Source: Planctomycetota bacterium | GTDB lineage: Bacteria; Planctomycetota; Planctomycetia; Pirellulales; Lacipirellulaceae | Reading direction: 5' to 3' | NCBI GenBank assembly: GCA_963578605.1 | Contig: CAUZEA010000001.1 | Location: 83,749-147,748, forward strand | Length of the DNA: 64,000 nucleotides | Part shown: positions 55,630 to 63,872 of the stretch, one piece after another | Layout: the number at the start of each line of letters is the position of its first letter | Numbering within the stretch: the stretch's first letter is position 1 | The notes under the pieces: generated by a model | The model's input: the letters and a program-made list of their open reading frames with translations, nothing else | Told to the model about the DNA's origin: nothing | Database searches by the model: none | Program-made: the position numbers and the translations under genes

Positions 55630-57432
55630 GTGATCCACCGCCGTACCGTTTTGTTGACCTACTTTTGTCTGCTAACGACCACCGCACTCTGCCCGCTCGC
55701 GACAGCCCAGCCCACGTTACAGCCAACAAAGGCCGCTTTCGCAGTTGTCGGCGAACACGAATCGGTCGCCACGATAGCCATTAACAGTTACGACAACCTG
55801 CTTGCCGATGCCAATTTCATCGGCAGCCTGGCAGGTTACCCTGAAATCGGCAATATGGTGGAAGGCTTCATCGCCTTGTTCACCCAGGGGAAAGGCCTGG
55901 TTGGCCTCGATAAGTCCAAACCGTGGGGAGTACTTATCACGACCGACGGTAAGGAGTTCATGCCGATTGGCTGTCTGCCAGTCCACGACTCGAAGGACCT
56001 GCTGCAGCTGCTGGCCGCCTTCCAAATCAAAGTCGATGAACGTGACGATCACCTCGTGGAAATCACTACCCCGAACGGTCCGCCGCTTTTTGTGGTCGAA
56101 AAAGATGGCTGGGCCTACATTTCCAACAAAAGCGAATACCTGGACCCGGTTCCTGCCAACCCCGAACAACACTTCAGGTCCCTGGTCAAAGATTACGATC
56201 TGGCAGTGCAAGCTTCCGTCCAGAAGATTCCGAGCGAATACCGCGATTTGGCGATTGATCAGCTTCGCGCTGGTCTGCAAGAAGGACTGAAAAAGGAAGC
56301 GGATGAGGATGACGAAACCTTCGAAACCCGTAAACGATGGTCCGAATCGCAGTTGCAAAACATCGTGACGGGTATTGACGAGATCGATCAGGTTGTCATC
56401 GGCTGGGCGATCGACTCCAGCAAACAAAACACCTACTTCGACTTTATCTACCGGGTCTTGCCAGAAAGCGATCTCAGTAAATTGCTGGCGTCGATCGCTG
56501 CAAATGTCCACTCCAACTATGCCGGATTCTATCAACCTGAATCGGCCGCGTGCCTCACCTTCATCGCCAAATCCGATCCTAAGTTCAACGAGCGTGGAAT
56601 CGAGCAAATGAAGGCGACGATGTCGACCCTGCGGGAACAAATTGCCAACGGAATCGACAAAGAAGATGGGGATCTCCTGAAAAACGCAAAAACAAAAGCA
56701 GCTCTCAAAAAGGTCGTGTTTGGATTTCTCGACGCATTCGAAGAAACAGTAGCAACGGGTAAATCGGCAGGAGGGGCTGTGCTGGATCTCTCCCCAGATT
56801 GGTTGACAGTTGTAGTTGGCTGCTACGTGAAAGACCCCAGTAAGATTGATGAAAGTCTCCACGAACTGGCCAAAATAGCGGAAAAAGAGCCTGAGTTCCC
56901 GGGGGTAAACTGGAATGCCGACGAACATGAAGGAATCACGTTTCACACTATTCAGGTTCCCATCGGCGACGACGACGCGGGAGCCGACGATGACGACGAA
57001 CAAGCAAAGAAACTCGAACAAGCAAAGAAACTCTTAGGCCCGACGGCCGACTTCTCGATCGGCGTTGGAAAAGAGTCGGTCTATTTTGGCTTCGGACGTG
57101 ACAATTTGGGGAGAACCAAGGAAATTATCGACTCTTCCCTGGCTCAACCCAACAAACCCATGCCCATGGCCGAATGGATGATCTCGTTAGGGCCTATTAT
57201 GGAGGTGGCTGCTGAATTCTCCGACGACGATGACCCGCAGCAAAAGAAGATTTTGCAAACCATTGTCCAGATGTTGCGAAATGAGTCCCAAGGTAAAGAC
57301 CACGTTACCGCTGTCGCTACACCCATTGAGAACGGATTAAGATATCGCGTCATCGTTGAAGAGGGTGTTCTCCGAGCTTTGGGCAAAGCTGCCGCGGCTG
57401 CCAGCCAGGGCGCTGATGGGAGTGGTTCTTAA
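55630..57432 (+). CDS. Hypothetical secreted protein, acidic
   Basis: GGAG precedes the GTG. Signal peptide MIHRRTVLLTYFCLLTTTALCPLATAQP. The competing antisense ORF 55717-57021 has implausible composition. Confidence 0.7.
   Translation: MIHRRTVLLTYFCLLTTTALCPLATAQPTLQPTKAAFAVVGEHESVATIAINSYDNLLADANFIGSLAGYPEIGNMVEGFIALFTQGKGLVGLDKSKPWGVLITTDGKEFMPIGCLPVHDSKDLLQLLAAFQIKVDERDDHLVEITTPNGPPLFVVEKDGWAYISNKSEYLDPVPANPEQHFRSLVKDYDLAVQASVQKIPSEYRDLAIDQLRAGLQEGLKKEADEDDETFETRKRWSESQLQNIVTGIDEIDQVVIGWAIDSSKQNTYFDFIYRVLPESDLSKLLASIAANVHSNYAGFYQPESAACLTFIAKSDPKFNERGIEQMKATMSTLREQIANGIDKEDGDLLKNAKTKAALKKVVFGFLDAFEETVATGKSAGGAVLDLSPDWLTVVVGCYVKDPSKIDESLHELAKIAEKEPEFPGVNWNADEHEGITFHTIQVPIGDDDAGADDDDEQAKKLEQAKKLLGPTADFSIGVGKESVYFGFGRDNLGRTKEIIDSSLAQPNKPMPMAEWMISLGPIMEVAAEFSDDDDPQQKKILQTIVQMLRNESQGKDHVTAVATPIENGLRYRVIVEEGVLRALGKAAAAASQGADGSGS
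56998..57033. repeat. Perfect 18-bp tandem duplication inside a CDS
   Basis: gaacaagcaaagaaactc occurs twice, encoding EQAKKLEQAKKL. Confidence 0.9.
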
Positions 57433-59767: not shown

Positions 59768-61639
59768 ATGCCTCTTGAACCAGGGAAGATCTATCAAGGC
59801 GATTGCCTTGAACAGATGTGTGAAATCGCGGATGGCTCGATCGATCTTGTTTTTGCCGATCCGCCATTTAATATTGGCCACAAGTACGACAAGTATGACG
59901 ATCGTCGGGACGACGGTGCTTATGTCGACTGGTCGAAAGCTTGGATCGAGTCCGTTTACCGCATACTGAAACCAAACGGCACGTTCTGGTTAGCCATTGG
60001 TGACGAATACGCGGCAGAACTGAAGGTCGCCGCCCAGCGGGAAACCCGATTTTGCACCCGCAGCTGGGTCGTGTGGTATTACACATTTGGTGTGAATTGC
60101 ACGAAGAAATTCTCGCGTTCGCACGCACACCTTTTGCATTTCGTAAAAGACGAGAATGATTTCACCTTCAACGCCGACGATCCGGCACTTCGGATCCCTT
60201 CAGCGCGGGCTTTAGTCTACGGCGACAAGCGGGCCAACCCGAAGGGACGCCTGCCGGATGATACCTGGATCCTGCGGCCCCAGGATTTTCAGTCGGACCA
60301 ATACGGCTACGATCCTCGGCAAGACACCTGGTATTTTGCCCGGGTTGCCGGCACTTTCAAAGAACGGCAAGGTTTTCACGGCTGCCAGATGCCTGAACAG
60401 CTTTTGGGGCGGATTGTTCGAACCAGCAGCAACTCGGGGGATCTCGTGCTGGACCCCTTCGCCGGCAGCGGAACGACGCTCGCGGTGGCGAAAAAACTGG
60501 GCCGTCGATGGCTGGGGTGTGAGCTTTCGGCAGACTATGTCCGTTACGCATCCGAGCGACTGGAAGCCGTCAAGCGGGGTGATCCACTGACTGGCCCGGC
60601 CGACCCCATCGCCAGCGCACCGACCACAGCCGCTGGTCGTCGCCTACCCGGGAATCCGGCAGCCGAAGCAGCCGTCCAAGCACAAGAATCGGTGGAATCG
60701 GCTCCCACAGCAGCGTCGGCAACGGCGGGCACCGATCAGGGTACCCAGACCATTAAGCCCGCTCCTGAAGAAAAACAAACGTCTGGCCAGGTCGATCGGA
60801 CTGCGGCGGCAATTTTCACCAGGCCGAATGTCCGCAAGTTCATCCGTGATGTGCTCGTAGATGCCTTCTACGGCACGCATGACGGATACTCCTCCGACTG
60901 GCTCCTGGCCAACCCCGATTTGCAAAATGCCTTTCACGGCGCCTGCCGCCACCAGGGGCTCATTGGCAACCCAGCCGATTGGAATCATGAACTGATCCGC
61001 CTCCGCAAAGCGGGTCAATTCCCCAAACGAGGCAAAACGAGGTCGATCCCGGTAACGGCTGCAGAAATGGATGCCTACAACTTTGCCGCGGAAATCGCAT
61101 GGCGACTGGCAAGCAATGAATTTAAGGACTCCTCGCTCGACGAGATTTTTTGTGATCCGGTAAAAGCAGCCAGTTTCGACCGCCGCGCGAAACGCTTCAC
61201 ACCAGGGTTCCATCCCAGCCAGTATCGCTGGGCAGCACTGCGGCTCCGAAAAGCGAGTCGGGAACTTGTCAAAGAAGTCAAAGCGTTTCACTATGTCTTT
61301 GAAACGCGGAACTTCACGCGATTTCAACGCTGGGACCGGTTGAACCACGACCGCTATGCGGGGATCCCGGGCGTTTATTTGTTGCGGGGCGAGGACAAGC
61401 AACCACTTTATATTGGAGAAACCTCCAACCTGGGTGAACGGCTGAGCCGCCATCGGGACTCTCCAGCGACAGCGCAGAGGGTTCGGCACATTGCCTGGAT
61501 TTCTGATCGCCAGTTGCCGAGTCGTGAATATCGCCAGCCGCTCAAGGTCGCTTTGGTAGATCGGTATCAGCCCCTCTGGAATGTGAATCTGGTCGGCGTT
61601 TCCGAAGAAGTGACTGCGCCAGAAAATCACGTGGTGTGA
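59768..61639 (+). CDS. Beta-class N6/N4 DNA methyltransferase fused through a low-complexity linker and a middle domain to a C-terminal GIY-YIG-like module
   Basis: DLVFADPPFNIG (motif IV) precedes VLDPFAGSGTTLAVA (motif I). Ala/Pro/Thr-rich linker follows. C-terminus is GVYLLRGEDKQPLYIGETSNLGERLSRH...LVDRYQPLWNV. Confidence 0.85.
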   Translation: MPLEPGKIYQGDCLEQMCEIADGSIDLVFADPPFNIGHKYDKYDDRRDDGAYVDWSKAWIESVYRILKPNGTFWLAIGDEYAAELKVAAQRETRFCTRSWVVWYYTFGVNCTKKFSRSHAHLLHFVKDENDFTFNADDPALRIPSARALVYGDKRANPKGRLPDDTWILRPQDFQSDQYGYDPRQDTWYFARVAGTFKERQGFHGCQMPEQLLGRIVRTSSNSGDLVLDPFAGSGTTLAVAKKLGRRWLGCELSADYVRYASERLEAVKRGDPLTGPADPIASAPTTAAGRRLPGNPAAEAAVQAQESVESAPTAASATAGTDQGTQTIKPAPEEKQTSGQVDRTAAAIFTRPNVRKFIRDVLVDAFYGTHDGYSSDWLLANPDLQNAFHGACRHQGLIGNPADWNHELIRLRKAGQFPKRGKTRSIPVTAAEMDAYNFAAEIAWRLASNEFKDSSLDEIFCDPVKAASFDRRAKRFTPGFHPSQYRWAALRLRKASRELVKEVKAFHYVFETRNFTRFQRWDRLNHDRYAGIPGVYLLRGEDKQPLYIGETSNLGERLSRHRDSPATAQRVRHIAWISDRQLPSREYRQPLKVALVDRYQPLWNVNLVGVSEEVTAPENHVV

Positions 61640-61713
61640 ATGCGGCTGACCGATCACCACCAGCAACCCTGCCAGGCGAGCCCAGCAGGCCACGCGAGCC
61701 GGTTTGTACCCGC

Positions 61714-62805
61714 CTAGCCGGATGGATCGGCAACTTCGGTCTGTTGGACCGTCCGGGCAATCTTGCGGTTCTCCTGTTGCACCAGTTGACCGCAGGCAGC
61801 AGCGATATCGGCCCCGAGCGAATAGCGGATGGTTGTTGTGTAGCCAGCCGATTTAAGAATGGTGGCAAACGCATCTCGGCCAACGCGTTCGGTACTTTTC
61901 AGATGGGGTGCCTCTCGGATGGGATTGAATGGAATCAAATTGACGTGCACGCGCAAGCCATTGAGCCACTCCACCAGTTTATGCGCATCGTCAGCTGAAT
62001 CATTACGACCCGCCAACATGAGATATTCAATCATCACGCTGCATCGCTGAATCTGATTGATCCGCTCAAGCGCCATGTGCAGTTCCGCGAGGGAATACCT
62101 GGCTGCCAGGGGAATGATCTGCTGGCGAAACTCCTGGCATGCACTATGCAAACTGAGCGCCAGGTGGACTTCGGGAAACCGCCCCGCAGAGCGGATCATC
62201 GCAGCCGGAATTCCCACCGAAGATATCAAAATGCGCCCCGGTGTGTGGTGGAACAGCCGTGGGTCGAGTAACGCATTAACCGTTTCGTAGAGAGCCTGTT
62301 CATTGTGAAATGGCTCACCCATCCCCATAAATACAATATTGCGTACACGCCGGCCTTCTTCGGCAAGCAGTTCTCCGGCAACCACAATCTGATCCAGCAT
62401 TTCGGCAGCAGAGAGATCGTGGGCAATCCCCATTTTTCCGGTCGCACAAAAGTCGCAGTTCGCAGCGCAGCCAACTTGAGACGAAACACAGAGTGACGTC
62501 CGTCCCGACCCTGATCGCAGCATGACTGTTTCGACCAAATAGCCCTGTGCAGTGCGGAAGAGAACCTTCGTTGCACCGTCCAGTTTCGAGTCGTATCGTC
62601 CCTCGACGGTCAGCGTGCGGAACTTGAGTTGTTGACGAACTGCTGGGCGCTGCTCCGTTGGAATTTCTGCCAGGGCTGCCTCGGGGCCCAACGATTTCTT
62701 GAAGAAAGCGGTGCGCAAACGGCGAATCCGTTGCGGTTCGATGCGGAACTCCGCTCGCAAGCGATCGACCGAAACGGAATCATAAATGCTGCAAGAAGCC
62801 ATCAC
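61714..62805 (-). CDS. rlmN: 23S rRNA/tRNA adenine-C2 methyltransferase, radical SAM
   Basis: CVSSQVGCAANCDFCATGKMG, VFMGMGEP, SLHS, and C-terminal GADIAAACGQL with the conserved Cys. Confidence 0.9.
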   Translation of the reverse strand: MMASCSIYDSVSVDRLRAEFRIEPQRIRRLRTAFFKKSLGPEAALAEIPTEQRPAVRQQLKFRTLTVEGRYDSKLDGATKVLFRTAQGYLVETVMLRSGSGRTSLCVSSQVGCAANCDFCATGKMGIAHDLSAAEMLDQIVVAGELLAEEGRRVRNIVFMGMGEPFHNEQALYETVNALLDPRLFHHTPGRILISSVGIPAAMIRSAGRFPEVHLALSLHSACQEFRQQIIPLAARYSLAELHMALERINQIQRCSVMIEYLMLAGRNDSADDAHKLVEWLNGLRVHVNLIPFNPIREAPHLKSTERVGRDAFATILKSAGYTTTIRYSLGADIAAACGQLVQQENRKIARTVQQTEVADPSG

Positions 62806-62822
62806 GCTGGATCCCGAATCTG

Positions 62823-63872
62823 CTAGTCTTGCCGGGCAATGTCACACGGAACTTTGCTTTTCGCGCCGGGAATCTCGACCACGAATTGGGGGACAGCATA
62901 TCCCGGCAACCGCTCACGTAATTGCTTGAGAATAAACTGGCCCTGATGCGGGGGAACCTCAAAATGGGCCGCGCCCGACACCCGATCGAGCTGGTGCAGA
63001 TAGTAGGGCATGACGCGAAGGTCGACGAGACGTTCGGCAAGCGCCAGTTGGGCCTCCACGGAATCGTTCACCCCCGCAAGCAAGACCGCCTGATTCAAAA
63101 CCGGGATCCCCGCATCAATCAGCGCCCCAATGGCCGTCACGACATCTCCAGCCAGTTCCTGAGCATGATTCGCATGAATGACCATCACCGGCACCAGACG
63201 CGTGCCGGTCAACCACTCGATCAGTTCGGTGGTCACGCGTTCGGGGATGACAACGGGCAAGCGGCTATGAACCCGCAGGCGACGAACATGGGGGATGGCG
63301 GCCAGGCGGTCGGCCAGGGCGGCCAGGTGCTCGTCGACCAGTGTGAGAGGATCGCCACCACTGAAAATCACTTCGTGAATCGATCTGTCCGCGGCAATCG
63401 TGGCCAAAACCGGCTGCCAGCTGGCAAGCGAGTTGGGCGTTTGCTCGTATGGAAAATGCCTGCGAAAACAATAACGGCAATGGACAGCGCAGGCACCGGT
63501 CACCACCAACAACACGCGGCCGGGATATTTCTGGAGCAATCCGGGAGAAAGGGTCGCAGCCGCATCGCCAACGGGATCGGCAACAAATCCGGGCGAATCG
63601 TCCATTTCGGCCTGAACGGGCAGGACCTGACGGAGCAGCGGATCCGCCGGATCACCCGGCACCATCCGGCCAATGTAGCCCCGCGGGGCGAAAAGGGGGA
63701 AATCGCTACAGGCAGCCTTGGCACGCAGGGCAAATTCCTCCGGCAATTCGAGCAGTCCGCAGAGTTCAACCGGATCTCGCACCGCGTCCTTCATCGCCGC
63801 CTGCCACGACTCATAACCGGATTCTGCACTGCCGGGGCGGACAGATGCGGTTGGGCAGGTTAGAATTGGCAT
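62823..63872 (-). CDS. epmB: Lysine 2,3-aminomutase-like radical SAM enzyme (KamA/EpmB family)
   Basis: VTGACAVHCRYCFRRHFPY, FSGGDPL. Divergently adjacent to efp. Confidence 0.75.
   Translation of the reverse strand: MPILTCPTASVRPGSAESGYESWQAAMKDAVRDPVELCGLLELPEEFALRAKAACSDFPLFAPRGYIGRMVPGDPADPLLRQVLPVQAEMDDSPGFVADPVGDAAATLSPGLLQKYPGRVLLVVTGACAVHCRYCFRRHFPYEQTPNSLASWQPVLATIAADRSIHEVIFSGGDPLTLVDEHLAALADRLAAIPHVRRLRVHSRLPVVIPERVTTELIEWLTGTRLVPVMVIHANHAQELAGDVVTAIGALIDAGIPVLNQAVLLAGVNDSVEAQLALAERLVDLRVMPYYLHQLDRVSGAAHFEVPPHQGQFILKQLRERLPGYAVPQFVVEIPGAKSKVPCDIARQD

Follow-up and report, generated by a model that had tools for sequence, protein, structure and literature searches.

Why should a DNA methyltransferase carry a nuclease-like fold at the end of the same polypeptide, and does such a protein serve restriction-modification (R-M), repair or some other purpose? 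The question is raised by an open reading frame (ORF) of 623 amino acids (aa) in a 64,000-nucleotide (64-kb) stretch of DNA from a Planctomycetota bacterium of the Lacipirellulaceae; the whole of this stretch is referred to below as the window. An initial annotation described the product as a methyltransferase fused to a C-terminal GIY-YIG-like module, and proposed that it might be a single-chain R-M or repair enzyme. The polypeptide combines complete methyltransferase motifs with a nuclease site that lacks the canonical Glu but has other residues of the site, together with Glu551. Here it is proposed that the gene is the methyltransferase half of an old, Planctomycetota-specific methyltransferase/GIY-YIG nuclease pair, surviving alone as a housekeeping-type orphan with a pseudo-nuclease tail. 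Our confidence in this account stands midway between doubt and belief.

Domains of the fusion protein

The ORF, at positions 59768..61639 on the forward strand, is uninterrupted from ATG to stop. Its product can be divided as follows, with the basis of each assignment in brackets.

59768..61639, + strand: whole gene, encoding a 623-aa methyltransferase/helical-repeat/GIY-YIG-like fusion protein (ORF map, homologues)
59768..60577, + strand: beta-class S-adenosylmethionine (SAM)-dependent DNA amino-methyltransferase domain, aa 1-270 (Pfam match to aa 25-262, nt 59840-60553)
59858..59869, + strand: motif IV, DPPF, aa 31-34, the catalytic loop (read from the sequence)
60458..60478, + strand: motif I, FAGSGTT, aa 231-237, the SAM-binding loop (read from the sequence)
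60581..60640, + strand: conserved segment past the methyltransferase domain, DPLTGPADPIASAPTTAAGR, aa 272-291 (conservation)
60641..60814, + strand: variable low-complexity Ala/Thr/Pro linker, aa 292-349 (conservation, substitution rates, composition)
60815..61297, + strand: all-helical domain, aa 350-510, with two tandem repeats of ~52 aa (AlphaFold2, hhalign)
60878-61033, + strand: helical repeat 1, aa 371-422 (hhalign)
61121-61276, + strand: helical repeat 2, aa 452-503 (hhalign)
61355..61603, + strand: GIY-YIG-fold domain, aa 530-612 (Pfam, profile comparison with UvrC, Foldseek, residue conservation)

The N-terminal 270 residues are identified by homology as a beta-class SAM-dependent DNA amino-methyltransferase, as had been proposed from the motifs. 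The Pfam model N6_N4_Mtase (PF01555) matches aa 25-262 with an E-value of 4.1e-52 and 177.8 bits, against a gathering threshold of 26.7, over model positions 1-220 of 221. DPPF (motif IV) lies upstream of FAGSGTT (motif I), which is the circularly permuted order of the beta class. The string FADPPFNIG is invariant across the family alignment, while FAGSGTT is kept in the close family and appears as FSGSATT in distant clades. Solved structures related to the domain include those of MboIIA, CcrM and RsrI in the PDB. Among NCBIfam models, the adenine-specific DNA-methyltransferase NF008572 (YhdJ-type) matches with an E-value of 4.9e-49, under its equivalog cut-off, and the CcrM equivalog NF050803 is not reached (118 bits against a cut-off of 830). 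PADLOC returned generic methyltransferase matches only, the best of them to Type II methyltransferase models, with MTase_III also among them. Since motif IV contains Asp and the best matches are to adenine-specific enzymes, the predicted target is probably the N6 position of adenine, the alternative of the class being cytosine N4.

The methyltransferase is joined to the rest of the protein by the Ala/Pro/Thr linker that had been anticipated, aa 275-349 containing 19 Ala, 10 Thr and 8 Pro. The conserved segment at aa 272-291 has the pattern 'G..L.G...P..SAP.T' in the close family and is seen in distant members too. In the form 'G(D)PL.GP.DP..SAP.T..G' the motif is kept from Lacipirellulaceae to Gemmataceae and Planctomycetaceae, at the start of the variable linker, and it could be a docking peptide.

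The middle domain, which the initial annotation could not classify, is a 160-aa all-helical domain for which relatives were found neither in Pfam, NCBIfam or the PDB nor by Foldseek against the PDB or BFVD. An AlphaFold2 (AF2) model of aa 350-623, built on a 72-sequence alignment, has a mean predicted local distance difference test score (pLDDT) of 94.9 and a predicted template modelling (TM) score of 0.90, and consists entirely of helices in this domain, at pLDDT 94-98. The two repeats are three-helix units of ~52 aa, each ending with a basic 'LRLRK' helix. They were recognised by hhalign with a probability of 96.6% (E=6.7e-10), the signal being weaker in another comparison. As modelled, the domain is a new, confidently predicted fold without a solved relative, and a role in DNA binding or dimerisation is probable.

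Several comparisons place the last part of the protein in the GIY-YIG superfamily, in agreement with the initial annotation. The Pfam model GIY-YIG (PF01541) matches aa 535-574 with 24.7 bits, above the gathering threshold of 22.6, over positions 3-41 only of its 78, and weak NCBIfam Cho/UvrC matches cover aa 529-608. The UvrC and Cho equivalogs themselves are not reached (TIGR00194, 15.7 against 285 bits; NF007833, 22.7 against 367 bits), only the GIY-YIG region being aligned, and the PADLOC model PDC-S14 matches this region with 22 bits. The family profile aligns with UvrC's GIY-YIG domain (1yd6) with an E-value of 4e-5. In the AF2 model, aa 530-612 have the beta-beta-alpha-beta-alpha order, with a three-stranded sheet plus helices at pLDDT ~97. 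Foldseek superposes the last ~85 residues on the UvrC domain with a TM score of 0.70 and a root-mean-square deviation of 2.1 A over 82 columns (probability 1.00), and also matches Eco29kI (probability 0.99), T4 endonuclease II and phage GIY-YIG proteins. A shallow alignment of 24 sequences, used for an earlier AF2 model, had given a pLDDT below 50 for the GIY-YIG region and meaningless Foldseek matches to ferritin (E>0.5); it was replaced by the 72-sequence run.

The name-giving motifs are present as GVY (aa 535-537) and YIG (aa 548-550), with both Tyr and Gly, and the residues retained in the domain are Tyr537, Tyr548, Gly550, Glu551, Arg558, His562 and Asn605. A hand alignment had suggested that the usual catalytic Glu is replaced by Lys; the profile alignment, which is ungapped through the last helix, bears this out by setting Lys593 opposite Glu76 of UvrC. 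For UvrC, the residue numbers used are E76 (the metal-binding Glu) and K32, taken together with the alignments. The canonical Glu is found at position 593 in none of 72 fused copies. The residues seen there are Gln, which is the most widespread, Lys, Trp, Arg and Phe. His562 and the Tyr of YIG also vary among fused copies, position 548 being Tyr or Phe in close relatives. GIY-YIG nucleases hold their single catalytic metal by the helix Glu, while in the DNA-bound structures of Hpy188I the Tyr of GIY acts as general base and a helix Arg touches the attacking water and the phosphate (PMC3045582). Judged by Hpy188I, the fused domain is without the one residue that holds the metal.

Two earlier interpretations of the site were set aside. 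The Val at 594 in the window protein was taken to mean that the catalytic Glu had been lost in this lineage, until a wider alignment indicated that Glu594 is derived in one subclade. The widespread state is Glu551 with a non-acidic 594, and the subclade without Glu551 has Glu594-Asp595. The idea that the Glu had been relocated from the helix to position 551 is weakened by the presence of Glu551 in canonical paralogues as well.

The tail is nevertheless not decaying. In the close-family alignment, column conservation is ~90% for the methyltransferase, ~80% for the helical domain and ~65-75% for the GIY-YIG region, and 0.14-0.18 for aa 292-349 of the linker, which vary in length. Within the window's own lineage, the ratio of non-synonymous to synonymous substitution rates (dN/dS) is 0.09-0.11 for the methyltransferase, 0.16-0.18 for the helical domain and 0.11-0.24 for the GIY-YIG region, against 0.5-0.9 for the linker. 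Because the C-terminal tail appears from these ratios to be under purifying selection, it is best regarded as functional.

The standalone paralogue, inheritance and function

A search of all open frames of the fetched loci with a hidden Markov model (HMM) found, in at least 14 species (and one truncated case), a same-strand ORF directly downstream of the fusion gene. It has ~255-330 codons and contains the helical-repeat plus GIY-YIG module alone. Such an adjacent paralogue is present in about a fifth of related species, and in three long contigs with gene calls its start overlaps the stop of the fusion gene by 4 nt. One locus (L081) has exactly the synteny of the window, with the paralogue inserted between the fusion gene and rlmN. 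In the window the usual place of the paralogue is empty and rlmN follows; a second copy of the helical-repeat/GIY-YIG module was not found within its 64 kb, nor does a cognate restriction endonuclease gene adjoin the methyltransferase, the flanking genes being the ferredoxin-like gene and rlmN. The earlier statement that there is no adjacent restriction gene thus stands for the window and fails for the family.

The paralogues have the active site that the fused copies lack. All 14 have both Tyr, Glu551, Arg and His, along with Glu at the canonical helix position, where it aligns with Glu76 of UvrC; His and the Tyr of YIG, variable among fused copies, are constant here. The Asn is present in all but one, whose frame stops earlier. 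A motif by which the paralogue can be recognised is LYVGE...KHLDHSDNK...ALE.ELI.SR.P.FN. A search with the paralogue family gave 1113 matches at E<=1e-5, some of which are surely C-termini of fusion proteins. The best 120 of these are mostly 250-272 aa long, and some are labelled 'GIY-YIG nuclease family protein' by their sources. Mean identity across lineages is 51% for the paralogues and 32% for the fused modules of the same genomes, while paralogue and fused module are 25-36% identical to each other. Comparison of these sequences indicates that the C-terminal 270 residues of the fusion protein are a diverged duplicate of a small nuclease, and from the three identities the duplication would be old, with the fused copy faster-evolving and degenerate.

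In 66 species loci with enough downstream sequence, the acidic residues of the fused copy and the presence of an adjacent paralogue are distributed as follows.

Acid at 551 in the fused copy: 31 loci with no adjacent paralogue, 8 with an adjacent paralogue
Acid at 594 in the fused copy: 21 loci with no adjacent paralogue, 0 with an adjacent paralogue
No acid in the fused copy: 0 loci with no adjacent paralogue, 6 with an adjacent paralogue

The fusion itself is far more widespread than the pair. More than 120 full-length homologues (98-100% coverage) were retrieved from Pirellulales/Lacipirellulaceae metagenome bins; identity is 86-94% for two of them and 57-64% for the others. A further search that started from a Thermoguttaceae member added 119 full-length relatives, one named from Anaerobaca lacustris, so that databases hold more than 240 near-full-length fusion proteins. 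Among 1.84 billion representative proteins, a profile of the C-terminal 274 residues matched 752 clusters (at 50% identity), and the complete members of these nearly always start with N6_N4_Mtase. Matches of ~360 aa that seemed to be standalone proved to begin with the last ~54 residues of the Pfam N6_N4_Mtase domain and were rejected as truncated calls of the fusion gene.

A scan with one genome per species yielded 78 loci with the module, 76 of them labelled Planctomycetota, the exceptions being one Bacillota bin and one 'Granulosicoccus' bin with planctomycete-like neighbours. Lacipirellulaceae, Aeoliella, Botrimarina, Pirellulaceae, Thermoguttaceae, Planctomycetaceae, Gemmataceae and Phycisphaeraceae are all represented. 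In ~70 species genomes the module lies within a single open frame of ~580-680 codons with a DPPx motif upstream. The order infA, unknown gene, lysA, fdx, fusion gene, rlmN, epmB (then efp) is found in ~40-50 of the 78 loci, those of a Lacipirellulaceae-like clade. In distant clades the neighbours differ, and clustering of flanking ORFs at 50% query coverage found no flanking gene in common; this clustering returned only alternative-frame ORFs inside the fusion gene, and it missed the paralogue. The methyltransferase domain is 57-63% identical to the copies in Gemmataceae, Planctomycetaceae and Phycisphaeraceae, the most distant loci compared, whereas the C-terminal module is 33-44% identical to distant-clade copies. 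No relatives were found in 2.9 M viral contigs. A patchy, horizontally mobile distribution was not seen, synteny being kept and the gene being present in every Planctomycetota species locus retrieved. Synteny, distribution, domain identities and the absence of viral relatives together argue that this is a core gene of Planctomycetota, present as a single copy, kept in synteny and inherited vertically, and not a mobile R-M gene.

These results bear directly on two readings of the fusion. It could be an ordinary mobile enzyme of Type IIC/IIG-like R-M that serves in phage defence: methyltransferase and nuclease fold share a single chain, PADLOC matches the gene best with Type II methyltransferase models, and Type II restriction enzymes of the GIY-YIG class exist (Eco29kI, Hpy188I). 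Such a reading is already contradicted by the distribution and by the synteny among housekeeping genes; no mobile element was found at the locus, its one composition anomaly is the GC-rich linker (local GC content up to 0.62), and the canonical Glu is missing. We regard it as very improbable. The broader proposal of the initial annotation, a self-contained single-chain R-M enzyme, is likewise judged unlikely on account of the core-gene inheritance, the identity of distant methyltransferase domains and the absence of the canonical Glu in 72 of 72 copies. The other reading, that an assembly error or frameshift has fused two genes, can hardly be entertained. Eight relatives from long-read metagenome-assembled genomes (MAGs) do have the gene split into two or three overlapping frames (L009, L014, L033, L034, L036, L043, L046 and L081), but the frame in the window is continuous and the same in-frame fusion recurs in the ~70 independent species assemblies and the database proteins. 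Moreover, the split cases break at differing points within conserved domains and share no common domain boundary, as expected from assembly errors, and are most simply explained as sequencing frameshifts and not as real gene fission. The single-ORF fusion described initially is therefore upheld.

How might the protein work, if its tail is a pseudo-nuclease? The N-terminal domain would methylate DNA in a SAM-dependent manner, probably at adenine N6, and the fused module would act as a DNA-binding pseudo-nuclease in support of the methyltransferase, with contacts to DNA made by the basic LRLRK helices and by the Tyr, Arg and Asn that the GIY-YIG face has kept. A precedent is CcrM, in which a SAND-like C-terminal domain holds the non-target strand and its deletion abolishes activity (PMC6787082). 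The identity of 57-63% among methyltransferase domains of distant clades suggests a single conserved target site. Where a partner nuclease exists, the fused module may dock it; this is proposed because Hpy188I is a dimer in which the helix carrying the Glu is swapped between subunits, i.e. given in trans (PMC3045582). As the partner gene is absent between the fusion gene and rlmN, in the window's lineage the product most likely would only methylate the chromosome, at a site conserved in the phylum, unless a non-canonical nuclease site is active.

That last proviso cannot be passed over lightly, and a number of observations count against a tail without catalytic function. It is possible, if somewhat doubtful, that the protein is a methyltransferase and an active nickase in a single chain, in which Glu551 (Glu594 in one subclade) supplies the carboxylate of a rearranged site and Tyr537, Arg558, His562 and Asn605 work as usual, so that it both methylates and nicks DNA, e.g. 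in repair or strand discrimination. Of the 66 loci tabulated above, 60 have an acid at either 551 or 594 and none has one at both, and the subclade without Glu551 has gained Glu594-Asp595. All 52 copies without an adjacent paralogue keep an acid at one of the two positions and all six acid-less copies have a paralogue beside them; for the association of 'no acid' with a paralogue, Fisher p=3e-5 (kinship ignored). Without a paralogue beside it, the fused domain always retains its acid, which agrees with catalysis requiring a carboxylate. Sterically, a non-canonical active site is plausible as well, by analogy, because Glu551 follows YIG and in the product complex of Hpy188I the side chain of His76, at the same position, enters the first coordination sphere of the metal (PMC3045582). 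The general base of Hpy188I is kept as Tyr537 in 121 of 121 close and 44 of 48 distant relatives; Arg558, aligned with a conserved Arg in the first helix of UvrC, is kept in 115 of 121 and 40 of 48, respectively, and Asn605 is nearly invariant in both sets. Variation between Tyr and Phe at 548 need not inactivate the domain, since Hpy188I is active with a natural Lys there (PMC3045582), and purifying selection on the GIY-YIG domain is as strong as on the methyltransferase. Set against these points, Glu551 also occurs in the canonical paralogues, which makes it an ancestral residue rather than a ligand that has moved. At 593 Gln is commonest, the classic isosteric inactivating change, and Trp, Arg and Phe are found as well. 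Position 594 lies one residue past 593 and is usually paired with Arg598 (i+4), so that its acid may just stabilise the helix. The shift from 551 to 594 looks like a single evolutionary event, phylogeny being ignored by the association statistics, and the fused module evolves faster than the paralogue. Finally, a paralogue could be encoded elsewhere in the genome, outside the 64-kb window, in which case the orphan status assumed by the pseudo-nuclease account would not apply.

Elements of both views can be combined, in a form that we think unlikely. In an ancient, vertically inherited pair, the methyltransferase would have been fused to a pseudo-nuclease copy of its partner, on which the translationally coupled canonical GIY-YIG nuclease docks by way of the paralogous helical-repeat/GIY-YIG modules, the whole being domesticated for a task such as methyl-directed strand nicking, and lineages without a partner, that of the window among them, would still nick by way of Glu551 or Glu594. 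If this were true, it would represent a new architecture, an analogue of Dam/MutH used for housekeeping and not for defence, in which the fused domain of partner-less lineages has kept or regained a carboxylate (Glu551, or Glu594 in the sister clade).

Surroundings of the locus and exceptional members

In the window the fusion gene is preceded by infA, a gene for a 600-aa protein, lysA and a 4Fe-4S ferredoxin-like gene; past it, on the opposite strand, are an RlmN-family gene and then epmB. The lysA, ferredoxin and rlmN neighbours had been named in the initial annotation, to which infA and epmB can be added. Two features adjoin the end of the gene.

61640..61713, no strand assigned: 74-bp spacer between the stop codon of the fusion gene and the convergent rlmN-family gene (ORF map)
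61714-62805, - strand: rlmN-family gene, convergent with the fusion gene (ORF map)

The RlmN-family radical-SAM gene, in the region 61714-63872 (-), scores 261 bits, just below the 290-bit equivalog cut-off. In the same region it adjoins epmB (elongation factor P beta-lysylation), and in relatives efp comes next, on the opposite strand; the rlmN/epmB/efp neighbourhood is a conserved translation-related cluster. The 600-aa protein (55630-57432, +) has a signal-like segment at its N-terminus, an acidic stretch (DDDAGADDDDEQAKK) and no NCBIfam match; 17 related loci have a homologue, 28-73% identical, in the matching place between infA and lysA. The window has just a 218-bp spacer upstream of the fusion gene, and in many relatives (L001, L002, L081 and L084 among them) a divergent AP_endonuc_2 gene (xylose-isomerase-like TIM barrel) lies between the ferredoxin and fusion genes. 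Promoter and terminator scans at the locus gave background levels.

Some members of the wider family depart from the common pattern. The helical-repeat/GIY-YIG module is seldom seen outside the methyltransferase fusion; cases are a 324-aa protein of a Bacillota bin (L079, 5766-6740), which stands alone and whose GIY-YIG region is degenerate, and a protein, P0270, in which it is joined to DUF6575. The contig labelled 'uncultured Granulosicoccus sp.' (L049, CAXMSB010000021.1) has the fusion gene, the paralogue, fdx, rlmN and epmB at 57-84% identity to the window, and looks like a Planctomycetota contig misbinned into a gammaproteobacterial MAG. In a Thermoguttaceae MAG (L058) a second ORF of the fusion-gene cluster, which may be a second methyltransferase, is located ~5 kb downstream.

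Comparison with known systems

Literature searches found no published study of the fusion family, in keeping with the earlier remark that a fusion with this middle domain was not recognised as characterised; some members have been annotated automatically by the Joint Genome Institute (JGI) as 'DNA modification methylase/predicted GIY-YIG superfamily endonuclease'. The nearest relative of the C-terminal domain in sequence and structure is UvrC/Cho's N-terminal GIY-YIG domain, with which it has the GIY Tyr, the YIG Tyr, the Arg and the Asn of the UvrC lineage in common. Unlike UvrC, the fusion protein is without UvrB-binding, RNase H/EndoV-like and helix-hairpin-helix (HhH) domains, and the equivalent of Glu76 is Lys.

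Eco29kI and Hpy188I resemble the family in that a DNA methyltransferase is tied to a GIY-YIG nuclease, relatives of the window carrying a canonical nuclease gene directly downstream. These are mobile two-gene systems, however, in which methyltransferase and nuclease are unrelated proteins, whereas in the family described here a degenerate copy of the partner is part of the methyltransferase itself and the pair is chromosomally fixed across a phylum, with the partner absent in the window. An R-M fusion of Eco29kI has been engineered (PMC3039593). In five species of Lactobacillales, natural proteins with an amino-methyltransferase at the N-terminus and a GIY-YIG domain at the C-terminus were described, along with operons that hold the standalone versions (Dunin-Horkawicz et al. 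2006, PMC1564403), in contrast to the phylum-wide family here; these fusions consist of a COG4123 methyltransferase with an NPPY motif and a Slx1/YhbQ-like, not UvrC-like, GIY-YIG domain, and have no helical repeats. Type III R-M systems also encode a beta-class PF01555 methyltransferase, Mod, followed by a same-strand nuclease gene that possibly depends on it. Solitary Type III Mod genes are common. In the present family, though, the partner, a GIY-YIG protein of 250 aa, lacks a helicase/ATPase domain, the coupling proposed is through paralogous domains, and evidence of Type III behaviour was not found. None of these closest described systems has a methyltransferase to which a degenerate duplicate of the partner nuclease is fused, an arrangement not reported before. 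Equally unreported is the natural series formed by genomes that have the active partner and genomes that lack it, which can be compared for methylome, nicking and fitness.

In a marine Planctomycetaceae bin, an orphan methyltransferase, M.PspCM1200mP2I, has been found to make N6-methyladenine at CAAAT, and another methyltransferase construct from the same bin appeared toxic to Escherichia coli (Hiraoka et al. 2022, PMC8919816); either enzyme is a possible member of the fusion family. The closest parallel for the role proposed here is CcrM. Like the fusion protein, CcrM has the PF01555 beta-class fold (its structure, PDB 6pbd, is among the matches), is an orphan, is inherited vertically over a large clade and has a linker-joined C-terminal tail, which in CcrM is non-catalytic, binds DNA and is required for activity (PMC6787082). 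The two are not orthologues, as the NF050803 score indicates, and belong to different phyla; the tail of CcrM is a SAND/PWWP-like beta domain of ~85 aa, that of the fusion protein a nuclease-derived helical-repeat and GIY-YIG module of 270 aa.

Dam and CcrM are examples of phylum-wide orphan methyltransferases that have been found to organise DNA replication and repair as well as the cell cycle. Planctomycetota divide without FtsZ and have unusual cell cycles, and to our knowledge nothing comparable to Dam or CcrM has been described for them. The fusion gene is a strong candidate for such a role, and cultured members that carry it include Aeoliella sp. SH292, Aeoliella straminimaris, Botrimarina hoheduenensis Pla111 and Anaerobaca lacustris.

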